64,000 nucleotides of DNA from a virus. Position numbers and translations under genes: made by a program. The stretch is from positions 107,518-171,517 of the IMG/VR virus record IMGVR_UViG_3300010885_057925; one strand, 5' to 3'. The notes beneath the pieces are model-generated. The model ran no database searches and was not told the origin of the DNA. It saw only the letters and a list, made by a program, of their open reading frames with translations. Below are positions 30,689 to 64,000 of this stretch, in pieces. Positions within the stretch are counted from its first letter, which is position 1. The number at the start of each line of letters is the position of its first letter.

Positions 30689-30709
30689 CAGAAACTCTCC
30701 TGTATTAAA

Positions 30710-32023
30710 TTATGAGACTTCAAAGGGTTCGTCTTCGAGAATTGTGAACAATTGCACAGGACCCTTCCACAGTTCTTTTATTTTCTTGACGCAATTGTCA
30801 GCGTAATCAAGTTCAAGGTCACGTCCATCATGCTCATGACGTAGAATGAGCGTGTCTTTTTTGACTTCATCAACGTAGATCACGGGTATTGAATTACCTC
30901 CGACACCGTTAATCAGAGTTCTCTTTACATTATCCCAACCGTCTTCGTCAGATATATCTCTGATTGTCCAGTCAGGATTTTTTCCTTTTTCGGGAGCGTA
31001 TGTGAAAAGATTAAGCTCTTCGCCAAGCTCACGATCAAGATACTGCCATAGGAAATTTTCATCAGAGCATGCTTCTCTTGCGATAAAGCACTCATCAATT
31101 CCCTTCTCTCTCTCTATCTTCTTGAAGACCTCAAACCCAAGGTGGTACGGGTTGATGCGACCGGGCCATGGTCTAAGAACAAGGTTGTGACTCTTAAGGA
31201 AGGGAATATGCATCGAGTCTGGAAGCTGGAGGTCATGAACTATCCTGTAGTGCCAGAATGATGCCCACCCCTCGTTCATCACTTTCGTCTTGATTTGAGG
31301 CCAGAAGTACTTCGCTTCATCTCTAATGACAGAGATGATATCGCGCTCCCAAGGCTCTAGATCTCTACAATTCTCAGCTATGAAGCCCAGAACATCGTAT
31401 TCTATCTGCAAAGGTCTCTTGTCAGGATTCAGATTCGCGTACTTTTTAGGATCTTTCTTCTTGAGATCTAGAATTTCATTTCTAATTTCAAAGTCATCAC
31501 GCTTGAATCTAGGCTTTCTATCAACCTGATACTGAAGAACGTGACAAGCGTCTATGACTCTTTCAACGTTTTCTACTCCGATAGAAGGGTCTTCAACGTA
31601 TGACTGGAATCGCTTCTTGGCGTTTCTCAATCTCTGTATGATGTGATCGGGGTCAGTGTCTTTGAAAGTTATATTGTTCTTAAAGAAATCGCTGTGTCCA
31701 ACACAGTGAGCCATGATGAGAACCTGCAGGTACAGCTGATTCTCCTGCATTAGATAAGCAATCGATGGGTTTGAGTTGATGATCAGCTCGTACGGGAGCC
31801 CCTCAGCTCCAGCGTTATACATGAAATGAGTTCTCTCGAACGTCTTTCCGTACGACCAGTGACCGTAATGGCTCGGCATGCCGTGATAAGACATGTGTCC
31901 GATCATCTCTCGATAATCGCATGTCTCATACGAGATTGGGTACCAATCGAGACCGTGACCGCGAGCGATCTCGCAGATCTTTTCGTCCCACTGCTCTAGA
32001 TCTTTGACGCTCCAATCGCTCAT
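30710..32023 (-). CDS. spoVR: SpoVR/YcgB family protein
   Basis: HWSYGK, YELIINSNP, AHCVGHSDFFKNN, TKVMNEGWASFWH, NPYHLG. Confidence 0.93.
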   Translation of the reverse strand: MSDWSVKDLEQWDEKICEIARGHGLDWYPISYETCDYREMIGHMSYHGMPSHYGHWSYGKTFERTHFMYNAGAEGLPYELIINSNPSIAYLMQENQLYLQVLIMAHCVGHSDFFKNNITFKDTDPDHIIQRLRNAKKRFQSYVEDPSIGVENVERVIDACHVLQYQVDRKPRFKRDDFEIRNEILDLKKKDPKKYANLNPDKRPLQIEYDVLGFIAENCRDLEPWERDIISVIRDEAKYFWPQIKTKVMNEGWASFWHYRIVHDLQLPDSMHIPFLKSHNLVLRPWPGRINPYHLGFEVFKKIEREKGIDECFIAREACSDENFLWQYLDRELGEELNLFTYAPEKGKNPDWTIRDISDEDGWDNVKRTLINGVGGNSIPVIYVDEVKKDTLILRHEHDGRDLELDYADNCVKKIKELWKGPVQLFTILEDEPFEVS

Positions 32024-33207
32024 GTCTTACCTCCAAATAGCCTGTTGAATGTTGGCCAGATGTCCTGCGCCGACTTGAGCATAGCGACTCTGAATTTCTT
32101 TCCATCATCAATTTTAGAAACTGAGTTCCAAAATGACATAGAGCGATCAGCTTCCCACGCCATACGCTCAGAATCAGGACAAACTTCGCAGTAGCATGTC
32201 ATTTGAGAAATATCAGATAGCTCTCTGAACGCGTCGATCGCAGCGCTGTTGTCCTCCGACCAGTTGTCTCCGTCTGTGCAATGGAACGCGTAGATATTCC
32301 ACGACGAAGGGTGGAAGCGCTTGTTGATGATTTCAAGAGCTAACTTCGGAGCTGAAGAAATATGAGTTCCGCCAGAAGCTCCGCGCTTGAAGAATGAATC
32401 CTCGTCAGTTTCAAAAGCTTCCGTTGTATGACCGATGAAGATTATTTGAATCGATTCGTACTTGTGACGAAGGAACTGGTACAAAAGGAAAAAGAAAGAT
32501 CTAGCGATGAACTTGATGTTAGTCGTCATCGATCCCGAGACGTCCATCATGAAGAATATGACGGCGCTCGTTGCCTCTTTCGGCTTTTCTTTGATGTGAT
32601 GAAAAGAAAGATCATCATCGTGAAATGGAAATACTTCCTCTCCCGTAATCGGATCAATCTCAATATCACCCGATCTCTTCGCTGCTGCCTTACGCTTTAG
32701 ACGATTGATCGTCGATTCACGTTTGTCTAAGCGTGGCATGATTCCATGAGGACGATTACCATGTCTCTTTGTTTTGAACTCTTTGATCTCACGAAGCTTC
32801 TTTTTCTCAAGCTCCGGAAGACCCAAAGAGTCGAACAAGTATGACGCTAGCTCGTCAAGGCTAATCTCAACTTCGTAGAATTCTTCGCCCTTGTCTTTTC
32901 CGGCTTTATTTCCCTGACCCTGCTCTTGTTTTTGTCCTTTTTTCACGACCTGGCCATTCTGAATGTCAGTTCCAGGCGCTGATCCCGCCTGTTTGTTATC
33001 AGCGTTAGGCCCATAGACAAACTGCCATTCTTTGATTCCGCGGACCGGAATCTTTACTTTCTTCTTTCCGTCCTGCCCGATGATTGACTCTTCCGCGACA
33101 ATGTTATGTACACCCTCACGAATTGCCTTTTCAATCTTCTGCTTATGACGAGAACGGTCAGACGCCGAACGATCTGCTGAAGCTTCGTGTTGTTTGAAAG
33201 TAGACAT
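32020..33207 (-). CDS. yeaH: YeaH/YhbH (DUF444) vWA-domain protein
   Basis: DRSRH N-terminus, MDVSGSM MIDAS motif, SGGT, WNIYAFHCTDGDNW. Confidence 0.92.
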   Translation of the reverse strand: MSTFKQHEASADRSASDRSRHKQKIEKAIREGVHNIVAEESIIGQDGKKKVKIPVRGIKEWQFVYGPNADNKQAGSAPGTDIQNGQVVKKGQKQEQGQGNKAGKDKGEEFYEVEISLDELASYLFDSLGLPELEKKKLREIKEFKTKRHGNRPHGIMPRLDKRESTINRLKRKAAAKRSGDIEIDPITGEEVFPFHDDDLSFHHIKEKPKEATSAVIFFMMDVSGSMTTNIKFIARSFFFLLYQFLRHKYESIQIIFIGHTTEAFETDEDSFFKRGASGGTHISSAPKLALEIINKRFHPSSWNIYAFHCTDGDNWSEDNSAAIDAFRELSDISQMTCYCEVCPDSERMAWEADRSMSFWNSVSKIDDGKKFRVAMLKSAQDIWPTFNRLFGGKT

Positions 33208-37438: not shown

Positions 37439-37726
37439 TTACTGTTGAGACTCGTCGTTCGCTAAAAGAGAACGATACGCTCTTTCAGCACGATCTCTAG
37501 CCCAGAAAGATGCATCACTCTCTGTCTTGAAACGTCTGCTAGGAGTGCTGAGGTCATCTCTGTCTTTCACTGTTACACTCGCGAAATAACAATCATTGAC
37601 CGGGTCGGCAGTGACAACAACATGAACTCCCGGAAAGTCGCGCCAGTTCATGGTGTCAGGTCTGGGAGATTTTAGATCTCTACCGATCTCTTCTCTAATT
37701 AGATTTCTCAGCAACGAGATCGTCAT
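37439..37726 (-). CDS. Hypothetical protein with LRxIIREE-type leader
   Basis: MTISLLRNLIREEIG. Confidence 0.65.
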   Translation of the reverse strand: MTISLLRNLIREEIGRDLKSPRPDTMNWRDFPGVHVVVTADPVNDCYFASVTVKDRDDLSTPSRRFKTESDASFWARDRAERAYRSLLANDESQQ

Positions 37727-43829: not shown

Positions 43830-44402
43830 TTAGGGGCGATTTAATGTCTCCGAAGGATCAACGATAATAATATCATCGAACCCTTCCTCGCGTGTCGGCA
43901 TCTCGAATCGTGCCAGTGTATCCTCGATGATCTTTCTGCTCAGATGCTTGTCATCCAGCTCCGCAGCTCGTTTTTCGACAGACTGCTGGACAAGTTCCTC
44001 CATCCCACGGTAGTCAAAGAACACTGCGATCTTTTCGTAATCGTCCTCACGACCCTGGATCGCTGCGAGAGCTCGACGTCTTGCTTTGGATCCCATGTTT
44101 GTCATATCAACAACGATGTCCTTACTGGAGGCGGAAGCCCCCTTGATATTGTCCTTGTGAAGCCTCTCTATCTCCTTACGATGAGCACCCGCTCTTGGAC
44201 CAGCGATCTCATCGTATTTTAGTCCAAGAGGTTTCCTGACGATGTCGACCACTTTGTCGTAGCTGATGATGTAAGGGTCGGAAACATTCTGCTCAACCCA
44301 ATAGGATTTTCCGACTCCCTGCGGCCCAACAAGCACATAGATCTTGGGACGAGAGAGACTCTCGCGGATAATCTGGCGTAGAAGAGAGATAGACAAGCTC
44401 AT
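43830..44402 (-). CDS. P-loop kinase (polynucleotide kinase/AAA_33-like) with N-terminal leader
   Basis: VGPQGVGKS, VVDMTN, EMPTREEGFD; leader MSLSISLLRQIIRESL. Confidence 0.8.
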   Translation of the reverse strand: MSLSISLLRQIIRESLSRPKIYVLVGPQGVGKSYWVEQNVSDPYIISYDKVVDIVRKPLGLKYDEIAGPRAGAHRKEIERLHKDNIKGASASSKDIVVDMTNMGSKARRRALAAIQGREDDYEKIAVFFDYRGMEELVQQSVEKRAAELDDKHLSRKIIEDTLARFEMPTREEGFDDIIIVDPSETLNRP

Positions 44403-44467: not shown

Positions 44468-46357
44468 TCAGCTTTTGGCCGTGTAATCACTGCAGAACTT
44501 CCGCTCTAGTGCTGGAAGCTCCAAGTCGCCCAGCTGCGGGAGACTCTCGGCCCTCGCCATCACGGCATTTGCAGCCTCGGTTGCCTCGAGGTCAGCATTG
44601 TTCCAAACTTCAGAGAAGAGGCGATCCACCACTGCTCGACGCGACTTGAAGAAGTGCTCCATGACCGTCATGTTATGCGTGAAATTCGCGTCCTTCCGAT
44701 CCTTCTCGGTCTGGAGACGAGAGGCCACCAGGGCCATCACAGCGAGCTCAGCGCCGATGTCCACAAGTCGTGCAAGGATGAGCTGCCTCATCTCAAGCTT
44801 TGGTCCCCGGAGCAGCATCTGGTGGAAGAGAGTGAGAGCCAGTCGACGAGTGTTGCTCTCTGCCCAGCGAAGCTGTCGGGCGATCTGATCGTCAAACTTG
44901 AAGAACTTGTCAAAAATAGAGCCCACAAAGTTCTTCAAGTACCACTTCGGGTAGATGAGAGAGCACTTTCCGACCGTCTTCACCTTGTCCCACAGGGTAG
45001 CGCCCTTCTTGAAGAGTCCGCCGGCATTCCGGAGGTGACCGTCTAGAGCCTCACGAGCGATGAAGAGATGCATGACGTCGGTGGTTCCCTCAACGATCCG
45101 ATTGATCCGAGTGTCACGGAGCACGCGCTCCATCGGGAATCCGACCTCACCACGGTCCGCCACCGACTTCTCGGTCTCGAAGCCGCGTCCACCGCGGAGC
45201 TGGAACGCGGTGTCAGCGACTTCCCAAGAACGCTCAGAGTTCCACATCTTGGCGGTTGCAGCCTCCATTCGAATGTCGACACTGTGACGGTCGCTGAGAG
45301 CTGCACCGTAGAGAGCCAGGGTCTCCATGGCGTAGGTCTGGCCTGCGATCTCAGCCAGCTTCTGCGCACCGGCCTCGTGATTGCCGACGGCCTTACCCCA
45401 CTGGACGCGGCTCTTGGCCCACGAAGCGGAGAAGTCAAGGACATCTTTAGAGACAAATGCCGCCACCGCGGGAATTCCGAGTCGACCGTCATTGAGAGTG
45501 GTGAGCGCAAGCTTGAGACCCTTTCCCTCACCGAGGATGACGTTCTCAGCAGGAACCTTCACATTCCGGAATCTGATGAGACCGTTCTCGATTGCTCGAA
45601 TTCCGAGGAAACGACAGCGATGGACAACCTCGAGACCTTCCGATCGACCCTCCACCACGAATGCGGTGATTCCCTTTCGACCGTCCTCCGAGGTTGTCCG
45701 AGCCATGACGACGTAGAGATCAGCCAGAGTTCCGTTGGTGCACCAGAGCTTCTCACCATTGATGACCCAGGAGCCATCGGCCTGCTTCACGGCCTCGGTG
45801 ACCATGCTCGCCGGGTCGGAGCCTGCACCGGGCTCGGTGAGAGCGAAAGCTGAGAGCTCACCCTTTGCGATACGCGGAAGCCACTTCTTCTTCTGCTCTT
45901 CGGTACCAAAAAGCTTCAGGGGTTGGGGGACACCGATCGACTGGTGAGCCGAGAGAGTGGCAGCAGTAGATCCGCAGTACTTCGCAACCGCTCCGAGGAT
46001 CCGGACGTAGTTGGTCTGGGAGAGACCGAGACCGCCGTACTCCTTGGGAATCTTGATACCGAAGAGACCGAGCTCAGCGATACCCTTCCAAACGTGAGGC
46101 GGGATCTCCTGGTTCTTGTCGATAGCGTCACCATCGAGGTTGCCCTTTGCCCAAGACTCGAATCTCGCGATTAGCTCATCTCCTGCCTCACGATCGACCA
46201 CGCTCTGCTCAGGAAACGGGTAAGAGAGTTCGACATCCAGGTCGCCCATGAACATCGACCCCATAAAAGACTTGGACTTCCAGTCCAGCTCCCGGCTCTC
46301 CTCGGCGACCTGGATGGACTTTGCTTCTTCAGACGTACGATTCTTATTCTCGATCAT
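44468..46357 (-). CDS. Acyl-CoA dehydrogenase (long, VLCAD/ACAD9-like)
   Basis: FALTEPGAGSD, NGEKLWCTNG, GGRG, RIVEGT. Confidence 0.93.
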   Translation of the reverse strand: MIENKNRTSEEAKSIQVAEESRELDWKSKSFMGSMFMGDLDVELSYPFPEQSVVDREAGDELIARFESWAKGNLDGDAIDKNQEIPPHVWKGIAELGLFGIKIPKEYGGLGLSQTNYVRILGAVAKYCGSTAATLSAHQSIGVPQPLKLFGTEEQKKKWLPRIAKGELSAFALTEPGAGSDPASMVTEAVKQADGSWVINGEKLWCTNGTLADLYVVMARTTSEDGRKGITAFVVEGRSEGLEVVHRCRFLGIRAIENGLIRFRNVKVPAENVILGEGKGLKLALTTLNDGRLGIPAVAAFVSKDVLDFSASWAKSRVQWGKAVGNHEAGAQKLAEIAGQTYAMETLALYGAALSDRHSVDIRMEAATAKMWNSERSWEVADTAFQLRGGRGFETEKSVADRGEVGFPMERVLRDTRINRIVEGTTDVMHLFIAREALDGHLRNAGGLFKKGATLWDKVKTVGKCSLIYPKWYLKNFVGSIFDKFFKFDDQIARQLRWAESNTRRLALTLFHQMLLRGPKLEMRQLILARLVDIGAELAVMALVASRLQTEKDRKDANFTHNMTVMEHFFKSRRAVVDRLFSEVWNNADLEATEAANAVMARAESLPQLGDLELPALERKFCSDYTAKS

Positions 46358-46417
46358 CTTTTCTCCTTTCGTGAAGTATAAAGCGAAATGAATGACTGTT
46401 CAACTTAAGTTGCAGAC

Positions 46418-46455
46418 AAAAGAAAAGCGGCTTTTGGAAATGCCTCCAGAGCCGC
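46418..46455 (-). terminator. Intrinsic terminator
   Basis: GCGGC...GCCGC stem followed by TTTTCTTTT on the minus strand. Confidence 0.6.
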
Positions 46456-46529
46456 GAACTGTGCCAACCTACGATTTGGACGGGATTGCTATCAGGATAC
46501 CCGTGCTTTCGATCCCTGATCAGGGGATT

Positions 46530-47519
46530 TCAGAAGTTCTTCGGATTTCCCTTGGTCGAACCGAGGAACAACACGATATCGTTCACTTGCTCCGGTGTGA
46601 GCGCCTTCCCAAGCTGGTGCTTGCCCATCATGTAGACCGCCGCTCCCAAGCTCTCGGAGGATGCATCATGAAAGTACGGAGCAGTTTCAGTCGAGTTACG
46701 AAGCGAAGGAACCTTGAACACCATTCGATCGCTCTCCTGACCAGTCACTGCGAAGCGCCCCTGGTCGGCCTGGTTCGGCCACGGCTCCACAACTCCGAGC
46801 TTCATGAATGAGCCGCCACCGAGAAGCGTACCATTATGGCAGGCTGCGCAACCAGCTTCCATGAAGGTGTTGAGACCGCGCTTCTGATTATCATCAAGCG
46901 CAGAATCGTCGCCCTTCAAAAAATCATCCCACCTGGAATGGGCGACCAGAGTTCGCTCGTAAGCTCCGATCGCGACTCCGACATTCTCGAAGCTGAGCGG
47001 ATCCTTGACACCGGGGAAAGCCTGGGAGAACGCAACAACGTAGGTCGGATCATTCTTTAGGACCTCCACGACAGTCTCAGCGTCCGGCATCGCCATCTCA
47101 CCTGCCGCGAGGATGGGACCAAGCGCCTGCTCCTCCACCGTCTTCGCTCGGCCATCCCAGAACTGGGCAACCTGACCTGCAGCGTTGAAGACAGTCGGAG
47201 AGTTACGACTTACAGGGACCATCTTGTGTCCGGGCGAGAAGCTGTGCTCATCCGCCCCATCCTTCGCCACGTTATGACAGGTAGAGCATGACATGTTGGC
47301 GTCAGCAGAGAGCTGGGTCTCGAAGAAGAGTCGACGTCCGAGCGCGATACGCTCTGCGGATGGCTCATTACCTGCGACAAAGAAATTTTCCAGGAGAGGC
47401 TGGAAAGCCCCAAGCTTCGTGCGATCGACCGTCACCGCGTCTGTGGTCTGTGGGTTGACGATCTCCTTGACCGGCTGATCGTTGTTGCATGCGATGAGAA
47501 AGGAGAGTAGGGCGATCAT
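46530..47519 (-). CDS. Di-haem cytochrome c peroxidase (CCP/MauG family), lipoprotein
   Basis: Two CxxCH motifs (CSTCH, CAACH), RNSPTVFN, QFWDGRA, FKVPSLRN, PYFHD. Confidence 0.93.
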   Translation of the reverse strand: MIALLSFLIACNNDQPVKEIVNPQTTDAVTVDRTKLGAFQPLLENFFVAGNEPSAERIALGRRLFFETQLSADANMSCSTCHNVAKDGADEHSFSPGHKMVPVSRNSPTVFNAAGQVAQFWDGRAKTVEEQALGPILAAGEMAMPDAETVVEVLKNDPTYVVAFSQAFPGVKDPLSFENVGVAIGAYERTLVAHSRWDDFLKGDDSALDDNQKRGLNTFMEAGCAACHNGTLLGGGSFMKLGVVEPWPNQADQGRFAVTGQESDRMVFKVPSLRNSTETAPYFHDASSESLGAAVYMMGKHQLGKALTPEQVNDIVLFLGSTKGNPKNF

Positions 47520-47667: not shown

Positions 47668-47759
47668 TGGCGGCGGGTGAGGGACTCGAACCCCCGGACC
47701 CCTTTCGAGGCTCATCCGCTTTCAAGGCGGCGCCGTTATGACCACTTCGGTAACCCGCC
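47668..47759 (-). tRNA. tRNA-Ser(TGA)
   Basis: CCGC-CTTGAAA-GCGG, long variable arm; CCA encoded. Confidence 0.92.
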
Positions 47760-48446
47760 AGTTTCTAGATTGATTATATCAGATTCGCGTAAGATTACAA
47801 GTTTATGTGGAAAGTTTTTCCATTTTGATTTGTCACGCTCAGTGACGTATCCCTTAACTTCAATAAACATGTTATTGATTTTGAAGTCTGGAATATAGTA
47901 ATGAAATTCTCCGTGATGTTCATAAAGAAATTTATCTTTATTTCGTTCCCATTGAATGTTCATCGAATCCATGCAGCTAGCAAACCTAAACTCAAGTGTT
48001 GAGTCAAGATACACTTTACCTGCGATGGGAGAATCATACCATCCTCCCTTTCCAACCCCAGAACCTCTGCGATACCCACCAGCTTGTGGGTTCTTTTTCA
48101 TTTTCTCTGATATTTTACGACGTCTCTCATTTTCAATTTCTGAAGAATTCGCTTTCCACTTTCTTCCCTTGAGAGATTCGGACAATTTTGCTTTTGTTTC
48201 TTCGCTTGATTTTTTTCCTTTATTCCACCCGCCTCTTCCACGTCCCGTAAACGTAGCTCTCTTGTGAGCCCCTGCTCCCATTCCGTCACATATTTCTACG
48301 TGACGCTCTCTTTGAGAATGAATGTGATGTCCGCATTTTGGACATGCCCAACGAGGCGGTGGGGTCGTTCCATCACAAGATTTTCTGTGATTTCCGTGAC
48401 CAGCATTATTGACAAACTCACGATTACATTTACCGCATGTTACCAT
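47736..48446 (-). CDS. Putative homing endonuclease: Zn fingers + NUMOD3 + PD-(D/E)XK nuclease
   Basis: CGKC and CPKC; GKKSSEETKAKLSESLKG; YIPDF...IEVKG. Confidence 0.8.
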   Translation of the reverse strand: MVTCGKCNREFVNNAGHGNHRKSCDGTTPPPRWACPKCGHHIHSQRERHVEICDGMGAGAHKRATFTGRGRGGWNKGKKSSEETKAKLSESLKGRKWKANSSEIENERRRKISEKMKKNPQAGGYRRGSGVGKGGWYDSPIAGKVYLDSTLEFRFASCMDSMNIQWERNKDKFLYEHHGEFHYYIPDFKINNMFIEVKGYVTERDKSKWKNFPHKLVILRESDIINLETGGLPKWS

Positions 48447-54587: not shown

Positions 54588-54662
54588 TGGCGCCCGAGGC
54601 TGGGAATGATCCAGCGACCTAGCGGTTAACAGCCGCTTGCTCTACCACTGAGCTACTCGGGC
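54588..54662 (-). tRNA. tRNA-Asn(GTT)
   Basis: AGCGG-CTGTTAA-CCGCT; T-loop ATCATTC; CCA encoded. Confidence 0.9.
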
Positions 54663-55381
54663 AGAGTTGTATTATCCTGAATCGGGTAGAGTTGTTTAGC
54701 TTCTTTGCGCTGCCTGTGCCACTCTTTCATTCTTTGCGAATGGGCTTCTTTCTCTTCAAGAGTCATCGGCTTGCGATGCGCTCTTGCCTCTTTCATTCTT
54801 TGACGCTTGATTTCCAAGCGCTCAGCAGCATCTGCATTTTCAAGTTGACGTTGATGAGCTAAACGAACGCTCTCAGCAATTTTAGCCCTCTGCTCAGGAG
54901 TCTTCTTTTTACCCCTCAAAGCTGCGGCCATTCTATCACCAAAAGCCTGCTTCTCAGCATCAGGTTTGGAAGCCCATGCTTTCTTGCATGCCTCACTGAT
55001 GTCTGGTCTTTCCTTTCCTTTGAGGTGCTCAGAAAGAACCTTCTTAGTTTCGTCAGAGTGAGATTTTCCCTTGAACTTTGAGATACCAGATGCGTTGATC
55101 CAATCGAAGCCACCCGTGCCTCCTCTTCGAAGATTGTAGGTGTCGTCTCTTGCAAGAAACTCTTCGTTGATTACTTCTGACTCTCTTTGGAACATCGTTT
55201 CGACATCAGGAAAGAACTCAAGAATTGTCTTTTCAAAGTTCTCTACGCCTTGCTTCTCGATAGCCTGTAGGATGATCTTACCTGATCCCATGTAGCCATC
55301 TTCAAGATTGTCTGTCTTGTGAACTCCGACGTAGATTTTCCCGTTCAACTTGTTCTTCACTTCGTAGAGATAGTAGTGCAT
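54653..55381 (-). CDS. GIY-YIG homing endonuclease (Seg-like) with NUMOD3 repeats
   Basis: YLYEVKNKLNGKIYVGVHKT...YMGSG...YNLRRGG; GKSHSDETK. Confidence 0.9.
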   Translation of the reverse strand: MHYYLYEVKNKLNGKIYVGVHKTDNLEDGYMGSGKIILQAIEKQGVENFEKTILEFFPDVETMFQRESEVINEEFLARDDTYNLRRGGTGGFDWINASGISKFKGKSHSDETKKVLSEHLKGKERPDISEACKKAWASKPDAEKQAFGDRMAAALRGKKKTPEQRAKIAESVRLAHQRQLENADAAERLEIKRQRMKEARAHRKPMTLEEKEAHSQRMKEWHRQRKEAKQLYPIQDNTTLPE

Positions 55382-55433
55382 CTTTGCTCCCACTAATAAC
55401 TATGCACAATGTGTAGACTAGTTCTCAACTTAT

Positions 55434-55862: not shown

Positions 55863-56237
55863 ATGCCAGTCAACGTCAAGAGAATAATCCGTGAAGAGCT
55901 CGCCCGCATTCTCGAGGGTGACGTCGTCCACGTCAAGTTCGGTGGTGCACAGAAGACGAAGGAGCGCGAGAAGTCAAATTACCAGAGAGCTCTCGGAAAG
56001 GTAGTCTCAATGCTGGAAGAGATCATCAACGGCGAGGGCGCTGACATGGAGGACGATCAGATCGTCGAGCTCACGAAGCTCCTTGACCATGTGACCGGTA
56101 TGCAGGACGACGCGGCGGGCGAACCAGACGAGGAGGACGAAATGCCCTTTGGCGGACGTGCCTCGGGCCGCGAGCGCGATGAGCTATCTAATTTCAAGAA
56201 GTACATGAGTGACCGTGATCGCGATCGCGATTACTAA
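55863..56237 (+). CDS. Hypothetical acidic protein with N-terminal leader
   Basis: MPVNVKRIIREELARILEG; ATACTTA at 55838 and SD GAGG. Confidence 0.75.
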   Translation: MPVNVKRIIREELARILEGDVVHVKFGGAQKTKEREKSNYQRALGKVVSMLEEIINGEGADMEDDQIVELTKLLDHVTGMQDDAAGEPDEEDEMPFGGRASGRERDELSNFKKYMSDRDRDRDY

Positions 56238-56251
56238 TCAGGGACTCGATC

Positions 56252-56959
56252 ATGCCATCCGCGAAAGAATTCATACGAGCGTTCGAGCGAGCCACGGAAA
56301 CTTCATCGAAGTACGATGAATTTCGCAGCATGCTGCAATCTCTCGACGGATCGTTGGGTCAAGATTCACGGTCAGCCTCGATCAAGCTCAACACCAACAA
56401 AAAGGGATCCGACAGCAGGGTCGTTGAAGACGCTGTTCGTGAGAAATTTAAAGATAACCTAGGGAGAAGCAGGTACCCGGACGCTTTATTCGGCGCGATA
56501 CCAGTTGAAGTAAAGCATACTACCTCTGGGTTCGGAAAGCTGCCGACTGATTCATACGGTCTGACGAGAACTGACAAAAAATGGTACTTATTCGTCAAGG
56601 GTTCTGTCGACAGGGTGGAGAATGAAAACTTCACAGCGTGGTTGATGAGATCCGACTCGCTGTATCAGGAAATGACGCTGCTGCTTCGTGGCACGAGCCA
56701 GGGATCTTTATTTCCACACCAGGATCTCAATTCGATCGATCCAATGTCTGACGACGCGCTGGTGAATATCGAGAAGGAAATAAAAGATATCGCGAGCTCT
56801 CTGTCTACCTCCATCCTCAGGAAAGCGAGAGGAGAGGCCGAAAAGAGCGAGTCTGAGACCATGAGTCTCAGTAAGAGAGTGGGCATCAACAGGATCAGAT
56901 TCGACGTTAAGTTCGAGTCTAAGCTGCGTAAGATAATCTCTGATATAATCAACGATTAG
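56252..56959 (+). CDS. Putative PD-(D/E)XK nuclease with C-terminal leader-like motif
   Basis: E...YPD...VEVK; ends FESKLRKIISDIIND. Confidence 0.6.
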   Translation: MPSAKEFIRAFERATETSSKYDEFRSMLQSLDGSLGQDSRSASIKLNTNKKGSDSRVVEDAVREKFKDNLGRSRYPDALFGAIPVEVKHTTSGFGKLPTDSYGLTRTDKKWYLFVKGSVDRVENENFTAWLMRSDSLYQEMTLLLRGTSQGSLFPHQDLNSIDPMSDDALVNIEKEIKDIASSLSTSILRKARGEAEKSESETMSLSKRVGINRIRFDVKFESKLRKIISDIIND

Positions 56960-58619
56960 TCTTGAGAGCGTCGTTTTCTTCTTCGTCCGGCTCCGCGAGC
57001 GCGAATTCTGGATTTCCCATAGCTGCAAGACGGTCTATGATCTTCCTGTACAGTTCACTGCTCTCCGGAATGTTCGAGAGCGGCGCTGCGACGGGCAACC
57101 TTGATTTTCTGCGACCTGTGTAGTTCTTTTCGTGAGTGTGCTCGCGACCTTCCTGTGCCCTGATCATAAGCAGGGGCGCACCGTAGATCGCAAGAGGCGG
57201 ATTGCTCTGGCTCCTGATACGGTCAAACACCCTTCGCATTTCGCGAAGCGTGATACCTGATTCCATGTTATCATCCGCTATGATAGCTATGTGCAAGAAG
57301 GACGGGAGCGTCTCCACGTCAGCCTCGATAAAATCAGCGACGTGGCGCCGGTTTTGAGAAGGAACTACGCTGATCGAAAAATCAGACTTGTTCGCAGCAA
57401 GCATCCGCTTCCGCCAGTCTGGAATATCTCCTCGACGTTCATCCTCAAAATCTTTTATCAGATCGCCAACGGTCAAGCGACTCGGAACCGCCTGCTTCCC
57501 CCAGGCGTCCCACCTCTTTTTTATGAACGGGCTCAAGTTTGCGAGTTGCTGCTTCTGGACCTTCGAGAGATCGATTTCACCTGCGATGCCCTCCGCACCA
57601 GGGTTTGTTTCCTTAGCGAGGTCTCCGATCTGCTTAGCGAATTGCCTCGAGATGGTTTGATCAGCTTGAATTCCAGGATCCTGTGATACAGGGATTTTTC
57701 TGAACGATCTGTTGACGTCCACATCGGTCGACGTGAGGTAACCGTCAGGAAGCTGAAAATCTTTTATCGATTTCTCGAATCTTCTGATCTTCATGACGAT
57801 GTTCCTAACGAATTTCTGCGTAACCTCCGGGAATGAGTCTGGGTTTGCCTGAACTCTCTCGTACATCTTTCCGAATTTCTCTTTAGCGAGTCCAACGGCT
57901 TCCTCGTACTTTTTCTTTGCGAACTTTTCAAAGAAATAATCGTATGTCCCAAGTCTGTCGACGCCTTTGTTAAAAATGTCGATCGACTTTTTGATTTCTT
58001 CGGCGCATTCCTTGTAGGCGTTTTTGGAAAAATCTGACTTAGCTGTTTTTTTCTTGACCGAGACCCGTGACCCGATGTAGCGTGCCAAGCTGCTCCGAAG
58101 ACCTTCAACGTAATCGTTGACATGATTGGACGATGATGGGGTCACATAGATCGAGATTCTGGCTTCCTTCACTTCCTCTGGGAGATCTCCTCTCTGAACG
58201 CGTTCGTCAAGGTCGTCGACAATCGAACGGGCGATTATGCGGGTTCCGTCAGAGATATACTGCTGCATATCTTTTTCGGGTATCGTGTAGACAGTGTCAC
58301 GCTTACCCTTCAGGGCTTCAAGCACATCTTCGAGGTGGGAAGGGTAGGCCTTACTGTTACGTGCAGGCGCATTTTGCTGGAACGCGAACGCGGAACGGAT
58401 GGCGAAAACGTCTCCCGGAGACTTCTCCTGGAACTCCTTGAACTTATCGTCGGACGTGTAAGCTTCTCCGCTCTCACTCTTTCTCACAAAATGAATGTCG
58501 TTGAGATCCCAGGAGAGCGGAATCTGGTCACCAGGTTTAACGCCTGAGAGGTCGCCAACTTTGAAACCTTCGTTGACGAGGTAAGATCTGACGATATTTC
58601 TAAGAGTTCTTTCGTTCAT
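56949..58619 (-). CDS. Large protein with type I phosphoribosyltransferase-like motif and N-terminal leader
   Basis: IIADDNMESGITL PRPP-loop-like motif; MNERTLRNIVRSYLVNEG. Confidence 0.65.
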   Translation of the reverse strand: MNERTLRNIVRSYLVNEGFKVGDLSGVKPGDQIPLSWDLNDIHFVRKSESGEAYTSDDKFKEFQEKSPGDVFAIRSAFAFQQNAPARNSKAYPSHLEDVLEALKGKRDTVYTIPEKDMQQYISDGTRIIARSIVDDLDERVQRGDLPEEVKEARISIYVTPSSSNHVNDYVEGLRSSLARYIGSRVSVKKKTAKSDFSKNAYKECAEEIKKSIDIFNKGVDRLGTYDYFFEKFAKKKYEEAVGLAKEKFGKMYERVQANPDSFPEVTQKFVRNIVMKIRRFEKSIKDFQLPDGYLTSTDVDVNRSFRKIPVSQDPGIQADQTISRQFAKQIGDLAKETNPGAEGIAGEIDLSKVQKQQLANLSPFIKKRWDAWGKQAVPSRLTVGDLIKDFEDERRGDIPDWRKRMLAANKSDFSISVVPSQNRRHVADFIEADVETLPSFLHIAIIADDNMESGITLREMRRVFDRIRSQSNPPLAIYGAPLLMIRAQEGREHTHEKNYTGRRKSRLPVAAPLSNIPESSELYRKIIDRLAAMGNPEFALAEPDEEENDALKTNR

Positions 58620-58639
58620 CACACGATTAATTATTCGAA

Positions 58640-59455
58640 TCAATCGTCTTTAGCGTCTTTGCCAAGCTCGTTAAGGGCCCAATCGACCTCGTAGGTGAAA
58701 GATCCACCGTAGCGACGCTCCTGAATGATCTCCTTCCATTTTCCGATGAAGAAGATCAGCTCCTCCTTTCGCACCAGACCACGCTCTCGCAGCTTCTTAA
58801 CGCTGCTTTGAACGCCCAGAAGATGTTGCGTTGTCCACTTTCCTTCTCCGAAGTTGTTTCCTGCGTAAGCCAACCACCCAGTCAGGGATTCGTAAGAGTC
58901 GTCGGTGAGCCCCTCAAGGCCACGATGCTTCAAATACTTCAGAATGCGGCTTCCGAGAAAGGGAGTGTTGTTACGACCGACACGAAGCAGCCTCCTGCTC
59001 TCGATCTCGAACCAGTCTTGCGGGATGACAACATGCTGATGGTTGATCGCGACCCGACAGTTGACGATATCGAAGCTTGAGAGCGTCTCCTCGATCGTGG
59101 GCTGGATAAGCTCAGGATCATCGACAAATTGTACCTTCACTGTCTGATTCAGCTCCTTCGCGAAGCCGGCTTGGCTGCGACGGGCGTGCTTTGGAATCAG
59201 AGAAGCCGCATCTTCAGAGCTGTTGAAGAAGATGTCGATATCTCCTTGAGGCACGTAATCAGTCTCTTTGTATCCAGGGTGGAAGTACTGCTCCACAGGT
59301 CGATTGAGCATGAGATGTCGCGCGAAACCGCCACAGATCCAGCCACGATTGGCGAGCGCCTCGTCGACAACCGCAACTTTCTCGAGCGTGCGCCTGAGCT
59401 CGACATGCGCCCGGGAAGTAAGGGCGGACTCGAGTGGGATGAAATTGTAGCTCAT
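58640..59455 (-). CDS. Nucleotidyltransferase (poly(A) polymerase/CCA-adding head-like)
   Basis: ICGGFAR...GDIDIFF...VQFV...FDIVNC. Confidence 0.75.
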   Translation of the reverse strand: MSYNFIPLESALTSRAHVELRRTLEKVAVVDEALANRGWICGGFARHLMLNRPVEQYFHPGYKETDYVPQGDIDIFFNSSEDAASLIPKHARRSQAGFAKELNQTVKVQFVDDPELIQPTIEETLSSFDIVNCRVAINHQHVVIPQDWFEIESRRLLRVGRNNTPFLGSRILKYLKHRGLEGLTDDSYESLTGWLAYAGNNFGEGKWTTQHLLGVQSSVKKLRERGLVRKEELIFFIGKWKEIIQERRYGGSFTYEVDWALNELGKDAKDD

Positions 59456-59457
59456 GA

Positions 59458-59535
59458 TCACTCCCGACCACGAAGGATGGTTACGATGAGACCCACAACG
59501 GCGGCGATGAGGGCGAAGATCCAGAAGTTCCGCAT
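59458..59535 (-). CDS. 25-aa single-pass membrane peptide
   Basis: Promoter plus SD AAGGAGG; MRNFWIFALIAAVVGLIVTILRGRE. Confidence 0.65.
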   Translation of the reverse strand: MRNFWIFALIAAVVGLIVTILRGRE

Positions 59536-59555
59536 GATTGCCTCCTTATGATACT

Positions 59556-59584
59556 AGTATACCACGGACGGCGCGCCGTTGCAC
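59556..59584 (-). promoter_or_regulatory. Sigma70-like promoter GTGCAA-N17-TATACT
   Basis: Repeated motif with extended -10 TG. Confidence 0.72.
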
Positions 59585-59586
59585 GC

Positions 59587-60312
59587 TTACTTGGGGGCGC
59601 GAACCAGAAGCGTTTTTACCCGAACGTTTGCGACCCCTGTTTTTGCCAGAACTTTGATCACGACGTCGCCCTGGTCGTTGAACAAAGGCTCTTCCATGAT
59701 CGTGGCTGGGGCTCCGTTTCGATTCCAGCGAAGCGAGCCGATCGGATGCTTACCGCCCTCAAACTCGGCGATAGGACCCTTGAAGTTCTCCCGCGTGAAT
59801 TCCCAATCGTCAGGAGAGATCTTGCTTTCCGCGCGCCAGCGCCTGAAAATACCATCGAGCCGCGCGGAGATCACAGGTCTGGCTGACCAGTAGCTGTATG
59901 ATGAGAATCGCTTGCGCGCTGCAAGTCCCGCCAGCAGATGTCGAGACCTTTCACCCAGCTCAAGATCGGGCAGCGCATCGTTCACCTGCTTCCGGAGACG
60001 CTCGAGCTCAGACTGCGTGTGCTCGGTGAGCTTCCATCCTGCTTTTACTTTGTTGAGGACGCTCATGAGAGCGTTGACGGTATCTGGTCGACCAGAACGA
60101 GCTACGAGATTCTCAATCTCTGAGACAAGCGGAGCTACGGACTGGGGGCTACCTTTCGAGACAAGGTCATTGAGCCACCCCACGCCACCGCCCCGAGGCA
60201 TCTGATTCGTTTGAACAACACTGCGGAGAAAACGACCAGAGCTTGTCTCACCCAACCCGCACTGATCGTAGCGATCAGCCAGCTCTCGGACTTGATCCAT
60301 CGTGATTTCCAT
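59587..60312 (-). CDS. Hypothetical protein
   Basis: Own promoter and SD AAGGAG. Confidence 0.7.
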   Translation of the reverse strand: MEITMDQVRELADRYDQCGLGETSSGRFLRSVVQTNQMPRGGGVGWLNDLVSKGSPQSVAPLVSEIENLVARSGRPDTVNALMSVLNKVKAGWKLTEHTQSELERLRKQVNDALPDLELGERSRHLLAGLAARKRFSSYSYWSARPVISARLDGIFRRWRAESKISPDDWEFTRENFKGPIAEFEGGKHPIGSLRWNRNGAPATIMEEPLFNDQGDVVIKVLAKTGVANVRVKTLLVRAPK

Positions 60313-60331
60313 GCTGTCTCCTTATACAGCC

Positions 60332-60360
60332 ATATTACCATAGCTGCACGTGGGTTGCAC
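60332..60360 (-). promoter_or_regulatory. Sigma70-like promoter GTGCAA-N17-TAATAT
   Basis: Repeated motif with extended -10 TG. Confidence 0.72.
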
Positions 60361-60365
60361 GATTT

Positions 60366-60602
60366 CTAGCTTAGGTGCATCCTTATGTCTGAGATCCTGG
60401 AGCGCGAGGCGTCCGTCGGCGTCCCGGCTGCGTCGGTCTCTAGGACAGCAAGTGCCCACAGCTTGCCATGATTCGGTCGAATCTTCATGATGTCGGACCT
60501 AATTCGCATCAGAAGCTCCTCATCCTCATGCGGTATGGAGGCCGAAATTGTCGAGTAGTATGACGTGCTGGTGATGGTGAAAAGGCAGTAGACTGGATTC
60601 AT
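60366..60602 (-). CDS. Hypothetical protein
   Basis: ATGA overlap with the upstream gene. Confidence 0.5.
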   Translation of the reverse strand: MNPVYCLFTITSTSYYSTISASIPHEDEELLMRIRSDIMKIRPNHGKLWALAVLETDAAGTPTDASRSRISDIRMHLS

Positions 60603-61354
60603 CCGGTGATATTAATCACGCGCTGCCGCGATTTTAGTGATTCTGAAATTTCAATGAAATTTTCTTCCTCTTCCTCTTCCTGCATGCTTGGAACATGCGA
60701 GATGTAGGTTCCCTGCGCTGACATCTCGTATTTCGATCCGGGCGATCCCTGAAAATGATCCTTGACGTCGCTTTCACGGACGATTGTGACTCTTCTCTCT
60801 GCTAATCCCGAGCTTTTTGCGATCTTTCCGATCTGCTTCCAGACTTGTACCGGGTTCTTCTCAACGTCTAAGTTCGGATTATCGATCTTCGCCTTCTCCT
60901 CGGCGGCGCGGTCGATCCCGCTCATGTCAGGGACGCTCTGAACCGTTCGAAGGTTCGGGTTGTCCTTCATCATCTTGTTGAGGTCATTACCAGATGCGGG
61001 GTCAGATGCTGCGATGTTGAGGATGGCGGCGGCAGCTTTTGCACGCTCCTTCGGATCTTTGGCTCCCTTCGTGCTGGGGTCGGTCCCGAATCCCTTGAGG
61101 TAAGTTTTTTTATCCTCAGGAGAGAGCTTGGAGATCTCTTTCCTCGCGTTGAAGACGCTGCTGCTTGTCTTCGAAGCAGCATCCTTCGCGTGCCTGTTTG
61201 CCAGCTCAACGCTCTTCGCGCGGGTCGCACTTTTCACGTCGGCTGGCATGCTGGTAGGATTTCCGGCGCCTGCTTCACCACCGAGGACGCCCTCGTTCAT
61301 CATCGAAAGCTCCTCACGTATGATTTTTCTAAGAGCTGATTCATCAAGCGACAT
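60599..61354 (-). CDS. Hypothetical protein with N-terminal leader
   Basis: MSLDESALRKIIREELSMMNEG. Confidence 0.75.
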   Translation of the reverse strand: MSLDESALRKIIREELSMMNEGVLGGEAGAGNPTSMPADVKSATRAKSVELANRHAKDAASKTSSSVFNARKEISKLSPEDKKTYLKGFGTDPSTKGAKDPKERAKAAAAILNIAASDPASGNDLNKMMKDNPNLRTVQSVPDMSGIDRAAEEKAKIDNPNLDVEKNPVQVWKQIGKIAKSSGLAERRVTIVRESDVKDHFQGSPGSKYEMSAQGTYISHVPSMQEEEEEENFIEISESLKSRQRVINITG

Positions 61355-61398
61355 CGGGTTCTCCACTCGGCTAACCTAAGTATGCCTGATGAGTCAGT

Positions 61399-61995
61399 TT
61401 AAACGGAGAAGTAAGCGCCTCGGGTGTGTGCAACTCTATCGAGGTATTCTTCGCTGATTTCGGTCAGCGAGAATCTCATGTCTAGGGCGTCGAGAAGCGA
61501 GACGCGCCTCATCATGACCGGGCTACGAAATTTTCCAATCTCAACTTTTGAACCGCCACGGGCTTCTTCAGCGAAGATCCTGACGTGTGCTTGGACTTTC
61601 TCGGCTAGCCTAGGATCGAAATCGTTGATCGGACCCTCTTCGGAAATCTTGGCGATGCTCACCTGCATCTGTCCGTTTCGGTACCCGAAGTCGTGGAGGC
61701 TCATCCCCTCGTAGCCGACGTCCTTCACTGGAAATGGAACATGCCATGTGTTGCTCGCGCGGTTGCCCTCACGAAGCACATTCTTCCAGATCCACTCGGC
61801 CGTGCCTGGGCGATCTGGGTTCATGATGACGCTTGCCACGTCGGATTGACCACCGATGCGGAGGAGCTCGACGACCATTCGACCGTTGAGATCCTTGAGC
61901 TCAATCTTAGATTTAAGAGGAGGTTCCGATACCTCACGGAGACGTCGAAGCTCCTCACGGATGATCTGCCTCAGCTGTCTCTCATTGATCTTCAT
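61399..61995 (-). CDS. Hypothetical protein with N-terminal leader
   Basis: MKINERQLRQIIREELRRLREV; SD GGAG. Confidence 0.75.
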   Translation of the reverse strand: MKINERQLRQIIREELRRLREVSEPPLKSKIELKDLNGRMVVELLRIGGQSDVASVIMNPDRPGTAEWIWKNVLREGNRASNTWHVPFPVKDVGYEGMSLHDFGYRNGQMQVSIAKISEEGPINDFDPRLAEKVQAHVRIFAEEARGGSKVEIGKFRSPVMMRRVSLLDALDMRFSLTEISEEYLDRVAHTRGAYFSV

Positions 61996-62070
61996 GAAAC
62001 TACTCTCCAACGGATGATAAATATACGTCCTGTCTTTAAAATCAGCCAAAACGCTGGAACATGAGAAGCC

Positions 62071-62880
62071 TCAACGACGCCTTGGAAGTCCCAGTGAGTC
62101 CCGGACCTCGTCGTCGGACATCCTCTGCGGCTTCCTGGGAGGTGGCGGGGCAGCCACACCACCAACGCGTCGTATGGCGCCAGGTGATGGTGCACGTGGG
62201 GGTTCGGGAGCGGCGGGTGGTGGGGGTGGATTGCGCTCAGCCCGAGCCGCTCGACGCTCCTCACGCTCAGCCGCCCGCTCATCCTTCTCGCGTTGGGCCC
62301 CGATACCATCACGATGACGCTTCAGAGCGTAGTTTGCGGCTGACCAAGGATCCCTCATATTGGGACCGCCCAGGTGCACCATGAACGCGAACCCAACGTT
62401 ATGAAGCCACCGTGGGGGACTGTCCTTTGTGGCAGGGAACATGATATCGACAAGAGGTATCGTGTCTCCGGGTCGCACGCCGGGCACCCCCAGGGCAGAC
62501 GGATCCTTGTGGTGGACGGACGCGATAGTTCCCGGGTTCGTGTACGCCTCATCGTAGCCGTGCAGCGTCGGAATGATAACGTGATCGCCCTTGTTGAAGT
62601 AGATGTCGTTCTTGCCGAATATGGACTTGACATCGCCCGTCTTGCTCTCGAAATCCCGCTTCCACGGCCGCGTCATGTCGCCGTCGTTGTACCAGCTGTT
62701 GAAAGCGGGTGAGCTACCGATGAAAGGGTTACTCTCGAAAGGGATGTGACGCTTGTTGGGTGTCCACTCGACGTCCTCCTTCGTCCTCACGCTGTAGCCG
62801 TGCCTGTTCCTGATAGCCTCATCGAGCTGCTCGAGCTCCTCACGGATGATCTGCCTCAGCTGCCCCTCGTTGATCCTCAT
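62071..62880 (-). CDS. Hypothetical protein with N-terminal leader and Pro-rich tail
   Basis: MRINEGQLRQIIREELEQLDEA; SD GGAG. Confidence 0.75.
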   Translation of the reverse strand: MRINEGQLRQIIREELEQLDEAIRNRHGYSVRTKEDVEWTPNKRHIPFESNPFIGSSPAFNSWYNDGDMTRPWKRDFESKTGDVKSIFGKNDIYFNKGDHVIIPTLHGYDEAYTNPGTIASVHHKDPSALGVPGVRPGDTIPLVDIMFPATKDSPPRWLHNVGFAFMVHLGGPNMRDPWSAANYALKRHRDGIGAQREKDERAAEREERRAARAERNPPPPPAAPEPPRAPSPGAIRRVGGVAAPPPPRKPQRMSDDEVRDSLGLPRRR

Positions 62881-62979
62881 GAAAACCGCTCCAACGGATC
62901 CTAAATATAGTGCCCCGGGGGGAACTTGGGAAGTCTCCGGCCCGGGGCACTTTTTCACGCAGCGTGTGCCAGCGTGGAA

Positions 62980-63288
62980 TCAGCGGTTCATGATGTAGTC
63001 GCCCATCATCATGTTGACAGCGTAGAGCTCGCCCTTGCCGTCCTCCTGCGGGAACTCCTCCATACCGGAGTCCATCGTCGCGCCGAGGAGACGGTCGGTG
63101 CAGGACACCCACTCCTCCCACAGGCCGTCGACCTCGCTATCGCCGCTGTCGAGCATGGGCTCATCGCCCTGACTGCCACCGCCGTACCAGCCGCGGGCCT
63201 CACGCAGGGGCTTACGTGCGCCCCTCACCATCCTTGCCGCTTCCTGACGCACGATCCGGCGCAGGTCACCCTCTGTCAGTCTTGCCAT
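62980..63288 (-). CDS. Hypothetical protein with N-terminal leader
   Basis: MARLTEGDLRRIVRQEAARM...LREA. Confidence 0.72.
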   Translation of the reverse strand: MARLTEGDLRRIVRQEAARMVRGARKPLREARGWYGGGSQGDEPMLDSGDSEVDGLWEEWVSCTDRLLGATMDSGMEEFPQEDGKGELYAVNMMMGDYIMNR

Positions 63289-63356
63289 GATAAAATCTCC
63301 CTCGACGTAACGTCGAAATTAAGTATATCGGTCAGGTCAAAAACCTCCTGGTGCGA

Positions 63357-63824
63357 CTAATCCCCACCCGGACCCGGGAAGTTCGACCAGTCCTTGCGAC
63401 CCGTTGAGATGCCCTGCAGGATCTTCTGCCTGTACTTCTCACGGACATCATCGTCATCATCGTCATCATCGTTGTCGGGCGCGGACTTGGTGGGCGCTGC
63501 CTTGGCCACGGTGGCCTGTGGTGCCGCGGGCTTCGCGGCGATCCCGAGCTCCCTGTGGAACATCTCCTTGTTCCTCATGATCGACGAGGAGACGAGAGAC
63601 ATCAGCGCGTTATCGTTTCCGGCGTTCGCCAGAATCAGCCGGAGCGTGACGAGCTCGGGACCGTTGAGTCCCAACGATTCCAGCTTGCCCATGAGGCGTC
63701 TGATGACCACAACAACCGAATCGGGATCGTCCGGCAGGCCGCTCTGTGTGTCGAAACCCTCGCGGAGCGTCCGTCGTGCCTCCTCCCGGACGATCTTTCT
63801 CAACTGTGATTCTGTGATTCTCAT
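63357..63824 (-). CDS. Hypothetical protein with N-terminal leader
   Basis: MRITESQLRKIVREEARRTLREG. Confidence 0.75.
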   Translation of the reverse strand: MRITESQLRKIVREEARRTLREGFDTQSGLPDDPDSVVVVIRRLMGKLESLGLNGPELVTLRLILANAGNDNALMSLVSSSIMRNKEMFHRELGIAAKPAAPQATVAKAAPTKSAPDNDDDDDDDDVREKYRQKILQGISTGRKDWSNFPGPGGD

Positions 63825-63847
63825 GTTAAATCCTCTCCAGCGATCCT

Positions 63848-63854
63848 TAAATAT
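63848..63854 (-). promoter_or_regulatory. ATANTTA putative late-promoter motif (representative copy)
   Basis: About 20 copies just upstream of genes across the window (see findings). Confidence 0.6.
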
Positions 63855-64000
63855 ACGTAACGCGCGAAATTATGAAGCGGGGGATGGGCTTCCGGCCCGG
63901 AGCACTTTTGGCTGCTCTGTGCGCCAGCAGGGATCCGACCCCTCAGTTAACGCCAACGATGATGAGCTTGCCCCGCATGTTCCGGCGGAAAGCATTCGCC

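Follow-up and report, generated by a model that had tools for sequence, protein, structure and literature searches.

The last 64 kb of a 171.5-kb viral contig from an uncultured freshwater T4-like phage (IMG/VR record IMGVR_UViG_3300010885_057925, positions 107,518 to 171,517; hereafter the window, 64,000 nucleotides) carries a tandem array of five minus-strand genes, x1, x2, A, B and C, plus a truncated sixth at the contig edge. The array genes resemble each other at their 5' ends, which combine an ATAnTTA box, a ribosome-binding site (RBS) and about 21 leader codons, and encode unrelated bodies that we call cargos. We propose that this repeat is a 5' module for expression and targeting, shared by the internal-protein-like genes of a rapidly changing array. 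Sequence comparisons show that recombination has occurred at the modules, and the leader is most likely a capsid-targeting propeptide. As a whole, we consider this explanation, recombination at the modules combined with capsid targeting, to be probable. A model that had seen the letters alone (the sequence-only reading) had proposed that a ready-made cassette is grafted onto foreign open reading frames (ORFs); it was correct in outline, and the data are better described by shared 5' modules that recombine and undergo gene conversion with each other, which shuffles whole cassettes as well as leaders.

A repeated 5' module heads unrelated genes

An exact 29-nt run (61949-61977 and 62834-62862) encloses the 27-mer that the sequence-only reading had located at 61951 and 62836. 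A 27-mer repeated within 64 kb is unexpected by chance and therefore implies homology. The run lies inside a 68-nt repeat, 82% identical according to the repeat finder, which corresponds to about the first 21 codons of genes A and B and has the RBS and the ATAnTTA box immediately 5'. Similarity had been claimed to continue through start codon, RBS and promoter with a looser third copy, and two repeat families bear this out: D1 (61932-61999; 62817-62884, 82%; 63761-63828, 62%) and D3, made of the RBS plus TAAATATA (61998-62028, 62882-62912 and 63828-63858). A fourth copy of the leader is found at 61307-61333. Looser copies precede the three other array genes, and every copy stands at the 5' end of a minus-strand ORF (ATGs at 61995, 62880, 63824, 63288 and 61354).

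On the coding strand the module is laid out as an ATAnTTA box, 8-20 nt, GGAG, ATG and about 21 leader codons. The box and GGAG precede 5/5 array genes; a strong stem-loop is found only before gene A and is degenerate or absent before the others. The features of the array are listed below; L002 and L106 are two related loci described in the next section.

63943..64000, minus strand: 3' end of the truncated array gene, ending ...GKLIIVGVN before the stop
63880..63915, minus strand: GC-rich hairpin, degenerate copy of the gene A hairpin (repeat D5; 92% identical to L106 2303-2340)
63835..63855, minus strand: gene x1 module (TATATTTA box at 63848-63855; GGAG at 63835-63838)
63357..63824, minus strand: gene x1, 155 aa (leader roughly 63759-63824, MRITESQLRKIVREEARRTLRE/G)
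63296..63343, minus strand: gene x2 module (TATACTTA box at 63320-63327; small hairpin at 63300-63318; GGGAG)
62980..63288, minus strand: gene x2, 102 aa (leader MARLTEGDLRRIVRQEAARMV)
62909..62951, minus strand: GC-rich stem-loop abutting the gene A box, flagged by the terminator scan
62889..62909, minus strand: gene A module (TATATTTA box at 62902-62909; GGAG at 62889-62892)
62071..62880, minus strand: gene A, 269 aa (leader 62818-62880, ending at an invariant L-x-E, E21)
62834..62862, minus strand: exact 29-nt repeat, gene A leader copy
62005..62025, minus strand: gene B module (TATATTTA box at 62018-62025; GGAG at 62005-62008)
61399..61995, minus strand: gene B, 198 aa, mosaic (nt 1-45 A-like; from about nt 46 like its L002 orthologue)
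61949..61977, minus strand: exact 29-nt repeat, gene B leader copy
61361..61383, minus strand: gene C module (ATACTTA box at 61377-61383; GGAG at 61361-61364)
60599..61354, minus strand: gene C, 251 aa (leader MSLDESALRKIIREELSMMNE/G)

The 78-nt stretch that holds the gene A stem-loop has a folding energy of -39.7 kcal/mol (z -5.65), and the stem-loop at 62909..62951 is a predicted x2 terminator, similar to the PeSL stem-loops discussed below. The degenerate hairpin at 63880..63915 does not fold more stably than shuffled sequences (z 0.35).

Beyond about residue 22 the five array proteins have no common similarity by BLASTP, and hhalign revealed no hidden paralogy among the leader-trimmed families (28 family pairs, probability <=2.7%). 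The earlier statement that the downstream coding parts are unrelated thus stands, and the cargos are not detectable as diverged full-length paralogues. Pfam and PHROG searches with the five array genes gave no match. The body of gene A forms a beta-rich domain in an AlphaFold model (mean pLDDT 78), for which Foldseek found no match in the PDB at E <=0.001; its best matches were SH3/KOW-like barrels with a TM of about 0.18. At the C-terminus of gene A (62071-62250) and of all its homologues stands a strongly conserved motif, I-R-R-V-G-G-V-A-A-P-P-P...K-P...M-S-D-D-E-V-R...L-G-L-x-R-R, which follows a long helix and a Pro-rich linker.

The DNA identity of the A and B leaders exceeds what a shared peptide needs, as judged from both synonymous codons and run length. 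Synonymous choices are the same at 13/15 codons, with 6.2 expected from genome codon usage (P about 2e-4). The longest exact run in 190 leader pairs, taken from three related genomes, has a median of 9 nt and a 95th percentile of 18 nt, so that the 29-nt run is an outlier.

The ATAnTTA word occurs 46 times on the coding strand versus 5 times on the opposite strand, and 23/46 coding-strand boxes fall within the intergenic 4.8% of the genome (p 1e-18); no such intergenic enrichment was found for AT-rich control words. Boxes also lie 5' of head- and tail-module ORFs, which suggests, from their placement, that the element behaves as a late-type promoter of the phage. Sigma-70-like hexamers give only weak 9/12 matches (TTCCCA-17-TATATT before A, TTGGCT-18-TATATT before B).

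Array content turns over at the modules

Scans of the viral collection (cargo A, cargo B, alignments A2 and A3) returned one related contig only, and a single metagenome scan returned one 5.2-kb contig. The related loci with DNA are L002 (IMG/VR; flanks with 75-88% nt identity) and L106, the 5.2-kb metagenome contig. The order of array genes is as follows.

Window: x1-x2-A-B-C
L002: 1-2-3-4-A-6-7-B-C
L106: 2'-3'-4'-5'-A-C

Only the A, B and C cargos are orthologous, and the remaining cargos are unique. Gene C forms the 3' edge of the array and is conserved in all three. Array content therefore varies among relatives, as the sequence-only reading had expected, and different cargo ORFs stand behind the same leader DNA; breakpoints were found at the leader end, where it had placed them, or in the hairpin/promoter part. 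The x1 cargo was not found in the 151.7-kb L002 contig, in which the leaders alone matched. The truncated gene ends in RRNMRGKLIIVGVN and L002 gene 7 (R_7) in RSNIRGKLVATAVN, with 10/18 C-terminal residues matching, a weak and unconfirmed resemblance; its cargo may be that of L002 gene 7, located between A and B in L002, at another array position. A search for the cargo of L002 gene 7 elsewhere in the contig matched leaders alone.

Over nt 1-45 gene B matches gene A at 41/45 positions (91%) versus 28/45 (62%) for its own L002 orthologue, and over nt 46-345 the relation is reversed, with 98/300 matches to A versus 256/300 to the orthologue (Fisher p 1e-6). By this comparison gene B is a mosaic. 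Its L002 orthologue follows gene 7 directly, without a box or a separate RBS module. In L106, stem-loop, TATATTTA, GGAG and leader precede a different cargo, 5' (M_5), while the same module precedes A in the window and in L002; gene A of L106 follows 5' directly, without a promoter. The leader DNA of L002 gene 3 (R_3) and L106 gene 4' (M_4) has 85% identity over 61 nt, 27 nt of which form an exact run, and their cargos are unrelated. Within L002, genes 2 and 4 (R_2, R_4) share an exact 52-nt run from RBS to codon 12. In close relatives the leader evolves more quickly than the body: at 94% identity to A (P0001) or to B (P0051) the leaders are clearly different, and in P0031 and P0034 a second leader stands ahead of the remnant of an old one. 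The idea of a portable unit of promoter, RBS and leader consequently holds for the shared 5' unit on unrelated genes and fails for the promoter in L002 B and L106 A, where it is absent.

Strain variation was assessed by comparing Logan contigs of four metagenomic runs (X1-X4) with positions 57000-64000 of the window; stretches without X2-X4 contig cover are uninformative. A 10.9-kb contig of run X3 is ~97.5% identical to the window across C, B and A. Its six compensating indels all lie within 61964-62010, that is, the B leader and RBS. It departs from the window inside the stem-loop at 62949-62954, and a piece of the stem-loop appears again 1.1 kb further on. In an X4 contig, a 1420-nt insert between x1 and x2 is bounded on each side by the same 40 nt (63304-63343) of the x2 module (joint 63343>63304). 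A further X4 joint, 62820>63881, was discarded as too weak (35-nt side, depth 3).

These comparisons are consistent with a module of three parts: a GC-rich stem-loop that would terminate the upstream transcript, the ATAnTTA box with its GGAG ribosome site, and about 21 codons for a predicted amphipathic helix that contains two or three [L/I]-x-E sites. Since adjacent modules resemble each other in DNA sequence, the homologous recombination of the phage could use them as sites of crossover and gene conversion. Crossovers at modules would insert, delete or replace whole units of module plus cargo, leaders would be swapped between genes, and the 29-nt identity of A and B would be the trace of one recent event of this kind. 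Exchange of whole module-plus-cargo units together with leader gene conversion fits the data at least as well as grafting onto a foreign ORF. A more speculative extension, which we consider unlikely, is that stem-loop, box and leader would serve an integron-like system of cassettes in aquatic T4-like phages as its exchange site: single leader-plus-cargo units would be excised as circles, in the manner of PeSL mini-circles, and re-inserted at any of the modules in a co-infecting phage, and distantly related phages that keep the leader would share a pool of head-packaged, injected effectors.

The leader as a putative capsid-targeting propeptide

The leader, about 21 residues long, has the consensus M-R-I-T/N-E-x-x-L-R-x-I-I/V-R-E-E...L-x-E. 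A hidden Markov model (HMM) of it gave eight strong N-terminal matches on the contig plus weaker ones, two of which are small ORFs right after the protease gene. Tandem genes with the same leader are present in viral contigs L004, L014, L063 and L087, and a leader-only search of a large protein collection returned dozens of proteins with a nearly identical 23-residue start and unrelated bodies. The 95 leader proteins gathered from these loci and from public metagenomes fall into 47 cargo clusters. A 17-mer scan of viral contigs yielded 102 stretches, about 8 of them true N-terminal leaders; most matches were rejected as unrelated proteins that merely contain K/Q-I-I-R-E-E. A full-text literature search on the leader motif IIREE returned no relevant phage paper. 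Outside the array, the window contains the following genes with leaders.

56949..58619, minus strand: 556-aa protein with a leader-like N-terminus (MNERTLRNIVRSYLVNE/G), weak HMM score, ATAATTA box upstream
55863..56237, plus strand: leader-bearing 124-aa gene, L002 orthologue 91% identical
43830..44402, minus strand: leader fused directly to a complete P-loop kinase domain (AAA_33), strong leader match
37439..37726, minus strand: leader-bearing 95-aa gene

An [L/I]-x-E motif occurs at residue 5 in 81% of the leader proteins, at residue 14 in 94% and at residues 21-22 in 65% (n=95 proteins), and the Glu of the L-x-E at the border between leader and cargo is invariant in 23 gene A homologues. 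In T4, the prohead protease gp21 cleaves Alt at ITE-6 and LTE-619 (PMC5694885), and a capsid-targeting sequence (CTS) brings all internal head proteins into the core, after which gp21 removes it (PMC5694885, PMC9026906). It is this precedent, together with the gp21-type protease of the phage and the conserved [L/I]-x-E sites, that leads us to read the leader as a capsid-targeting propeptide, its most likely role. Like the T4 CTS, it would carry its protein into the prohead core and would then be removed by the gp21-type protease. Beyond the Met start and an x-E end, no similarity was found between the leader and the T4 CTS MKTYQEFIAE (ipI/II/III, AF158101).

Outside the window, at G000:C1:60708-62731, the stretch between the prohead protease and the major head protein contains small ORFs whose ends resemble the leader (MALTRSDLKDIVKE... 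and MSKVVNLTPALLRRIILEE..., and SRLRRLIRAIHDEQE at a C-terminus); these ORFs beside the protease have no Pfam or PHROG match, and may encode components of the prohead core or scaffold that have the targeting helix in common. In one ORF, the metagenomic protein P0055 (402 aa) combines a domain like that of C, a leader copy in its interior and a domain like that of B, and may be a polyprotein to be cut at the internal leader. In distant phages an upstream element, CCGGG-AAAATT...GAC, is conserved about 55-65 nt 5' of the ATGs of leader genes (L004 about 430-450 and 1625-1645; L014 about 8350-8365).

Alternative explanations

A chimeric contig joined at repeated sequence could in principle mimic such a repeat, and Logan contigs of the probable source run X1 do end near modules (e.g., at 61942 and 63288). 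However, contigs of the independent run X2 cover both repeat copies with unique flanks and zero mismatches, the 10.9-kb X3 contig crosses the A-B junction and gives the same order C-B-A, and homologous modules exist in L002 and L106; the coverage by X2 and X3 argues against an assembly artefact, the chance of which we take to be negligible. Plain tandem duplication, by which the array genes would be full-length paralogues with bodies diverged past recognition and a conserved 5' end, agrees with their common orientation, tandem arrangement and broadly similar small size, and a C-terminal domain is indeed common to L002 genes 1 and 4 (66% over 73 residues). Yet neither BLASTP nor profile-profile comparison detects similarity between bodies (<=2.7%; the profiles are shallow, so that very old paralogy is possible), identity between A and B drops from 91% to about 33% (98/300, near chance) within a few bases at codon 15-16, and a leader precedes the complete kinase domain of a cellular family. 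Duplication of this kind is very improbable in our judgement.

Functional selection alone might instead conserve the module, with DNA identity as a by-product that plays no part in gene turnover. Most leader pairs, in other phages too, have 56-83% DNA identity and exact runs of 5-16 nt, as such selection would leave, and general concerted evolution was not found. Against this stand the synonymous identity of A and B, far above expectation, a B leader that is nearer to its neighbour A than to its own orthologue, the 1.4-kb insert between 40-nt module repeats, the homology break in the hairpin, and the unrelated cargos behind the same leader DNA in different genomes; we rate it as improbable. 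A doubt of another kind bears on the leader, which could act as a helix for oligomerisation or membrane association, stabilise the protein or enhance translation. It is dissimilar to the T4 CTS and about twice as long, and AlphaFold returns a low-confidence helix only (pLDDT 49-64). Nevertheless, the phage has a gp21-type protease, the [L/I]-x-E motifs are positionally conserved with one invariant at the leader/cargo border, small ORFs next to the protease gene have leader-like N-termini, and synonymous leader sites vary freely across the family, which speaks against a role at the RNA level. Such other roles seem to us unlikely, though less so than an effect of selection alone.

Several points weigh against recombination at modules coupled to capsid targeting, or limit its reach. 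Just two related loci with DNA were compared, and the strain variants are assembled Logan contigs rather than reads, which is good but not final evidence. General homogenisation of leaders within genomes was rejected (identity of non-orthologous leaders 0.626 within versus 0.610 between genomes, p 0.30), and the leaders of A and C orthologues diverge at about the same rate as their bodies, which together suggest that exchange is episodic rather than continuous. For single events the comparison is compatible with insertion as well as deletion, and with either leader as the derived one. No leaderless homologue was found among those recovered for cargo A or cargo B: the leader is present in all 50 homologues found for A and in all 6 examined for B. 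As every such homologue already bears a leader, an outside origin of these cargos is hypothetical. The claim that the module is grafted onto foreign ORFs by recombination therefore divides: recombination at modules stands, and the foreign origin has the AAA_33 kinase fusion at 43830-44402 as its sole argument. We infer the enzymology of recombination and the foreign start of cargos; capsid targeting, cleavage and promoter timing are likewise all inferred.

Relation to known systems

The closest known cases are the T4 internal protein (Ip) genes with their CTS, and the PeSL cassettes. T-even Ip genes have only the N-terminal leader in common and form a polymorphic hotspot (PMC12373910, PMC3012670), and a role for the CTS as an evolutionary means of loading varied proteins has been put forward (PMC9026906); the original work on T-even Ip and CTS (Mullaney and Black 1996; Repoila et al. 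1994) is taken here as relayed in PMC9026906, PMC3012670 and PMC12373910. T4 ipII and ipIII, compared here from AF158101, are 100% identical over the 30-nt CTS and 29% identical downstream of it; the preceding 40 nt, with an inverted repeat and the RBS, are 70% identical. The array shares with these genes the DNA identity of RBS, ATG and leader in front of unrelated bodies. It also shares with the T4 Ip system small unrelated proteins with a common N-terminal propeptide alone, a gp21-type protease, a propeptide ending in [L/I]-x-E, and loci that are polymorphic between relatives. It differs in its leader, which is unrelated to MKTYQEFIAE, measures about 21 versus 10 residues and has two or three candidate cut sites, and in scale, as at least 8-11 genes of this half genome carry it and a small sample spans 47 cargo clusters; some cargos are enzymes. 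Moreover, the recombining homology extends here into the coding region, and packaging and cleavage are predictions from sequence.

In T4-type phages, PeSL (promoter-early stem-loop) cassettes mark the limits of indels and replacements (Arbiol et al. 2010, PMC2839356; Comeau et al. 2014, PMC4122927). Like the modules, they are composites of stem-loop, promoter and Shine-Dalgarno sequence 5' of ORFans in hyperplastic regions, and here too the motif bounds indels and replacements between close relatives. Unlike in PeSLs, the repeated homology continues into the leader, breakpoints also fall at the leader end, and a single ATAnTTA element, also present before structural genes, takes the place of a clear sigma-70 -35/-10 pair.

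The ejection proteins of the giant phages phiKZ and SPN3US are packaged in the head and carry propeptides with several x-E protease motifs, and include paralogues with identical first residues (PMC5694885). The N-terminal propeptide with several x-E motifs is thus a point of likeness. Their protease nevertheless belongs to the S80 branch with the cleavage motif A/S-x-E, and no tandem array of unrelated genes behind one leader is reported there (PMC5694885). Relative to T4 and PeSL, what differs is the unrelated, longer, multi-site leader, the far larger scale and the extension of homology into the coding region.

Genomic context

CheckV estimates the completeness of the contig at about 51%, and nearly all its genes lie on the minus strand. 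It encodes a prohead protease of the T4 gp21 family (Peptidase_S77, PF03420, 89 bits), and PHROG matches comprise a head maturation protease, a portal and a major head protein. This set of a gp21-family protease, portal and major head protein identifies a T4-like phage; the metagenomic runs that contain it come from freshwater and lake samples.

Between 39536 and 55725 the window contains 20 tRNA genes, mixed with leader-bearing genes and with two homing endonuclease-type features.

54653-55393: GIY-YIG endonuclease
47736-48446: NUMOD3-containing ORF

In T4, ip genes, tRNAs and segB likewise share one neighbourhood. Two further groups of genes were observed. A trio of PrkA, DUF444 (YeaH-like) and SpoVR occupies 28826-33207, with full-length Pfam matches (E 1e-105 to 1e-142). 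An acyl-CoA dehydrogenase with three ACAD domains and a di-haem cytochrome c peroxidase (CCP_MauG), at 44468-47519, adjoin the leader-tagged P-loop kinase and are unusual auxiliary genes in a phage.

Significance

The array is a larger-scale version of the T4 internal-protein gene pattern. Should the leader prove to be a tag for capsid loading, the proteins that many uncultured aquatic phages package, and probably inject, would become legible from sequence. In that case the array would hold a rapidly evolving stock of candidate anti-defence effectors, like T4 Ip1-3, and the comparison of relatives shows how such a stock turns over. A conserved 5' module that doubles as a recombination site would extend the PeSL idea into the coding region, and offers a testable model of how phages attach new functions to a virion-delivery signal. 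The leader itself, as a natural tag of about 21 residues, is a candidate for protein packaging in non-enteric T4-like phages.

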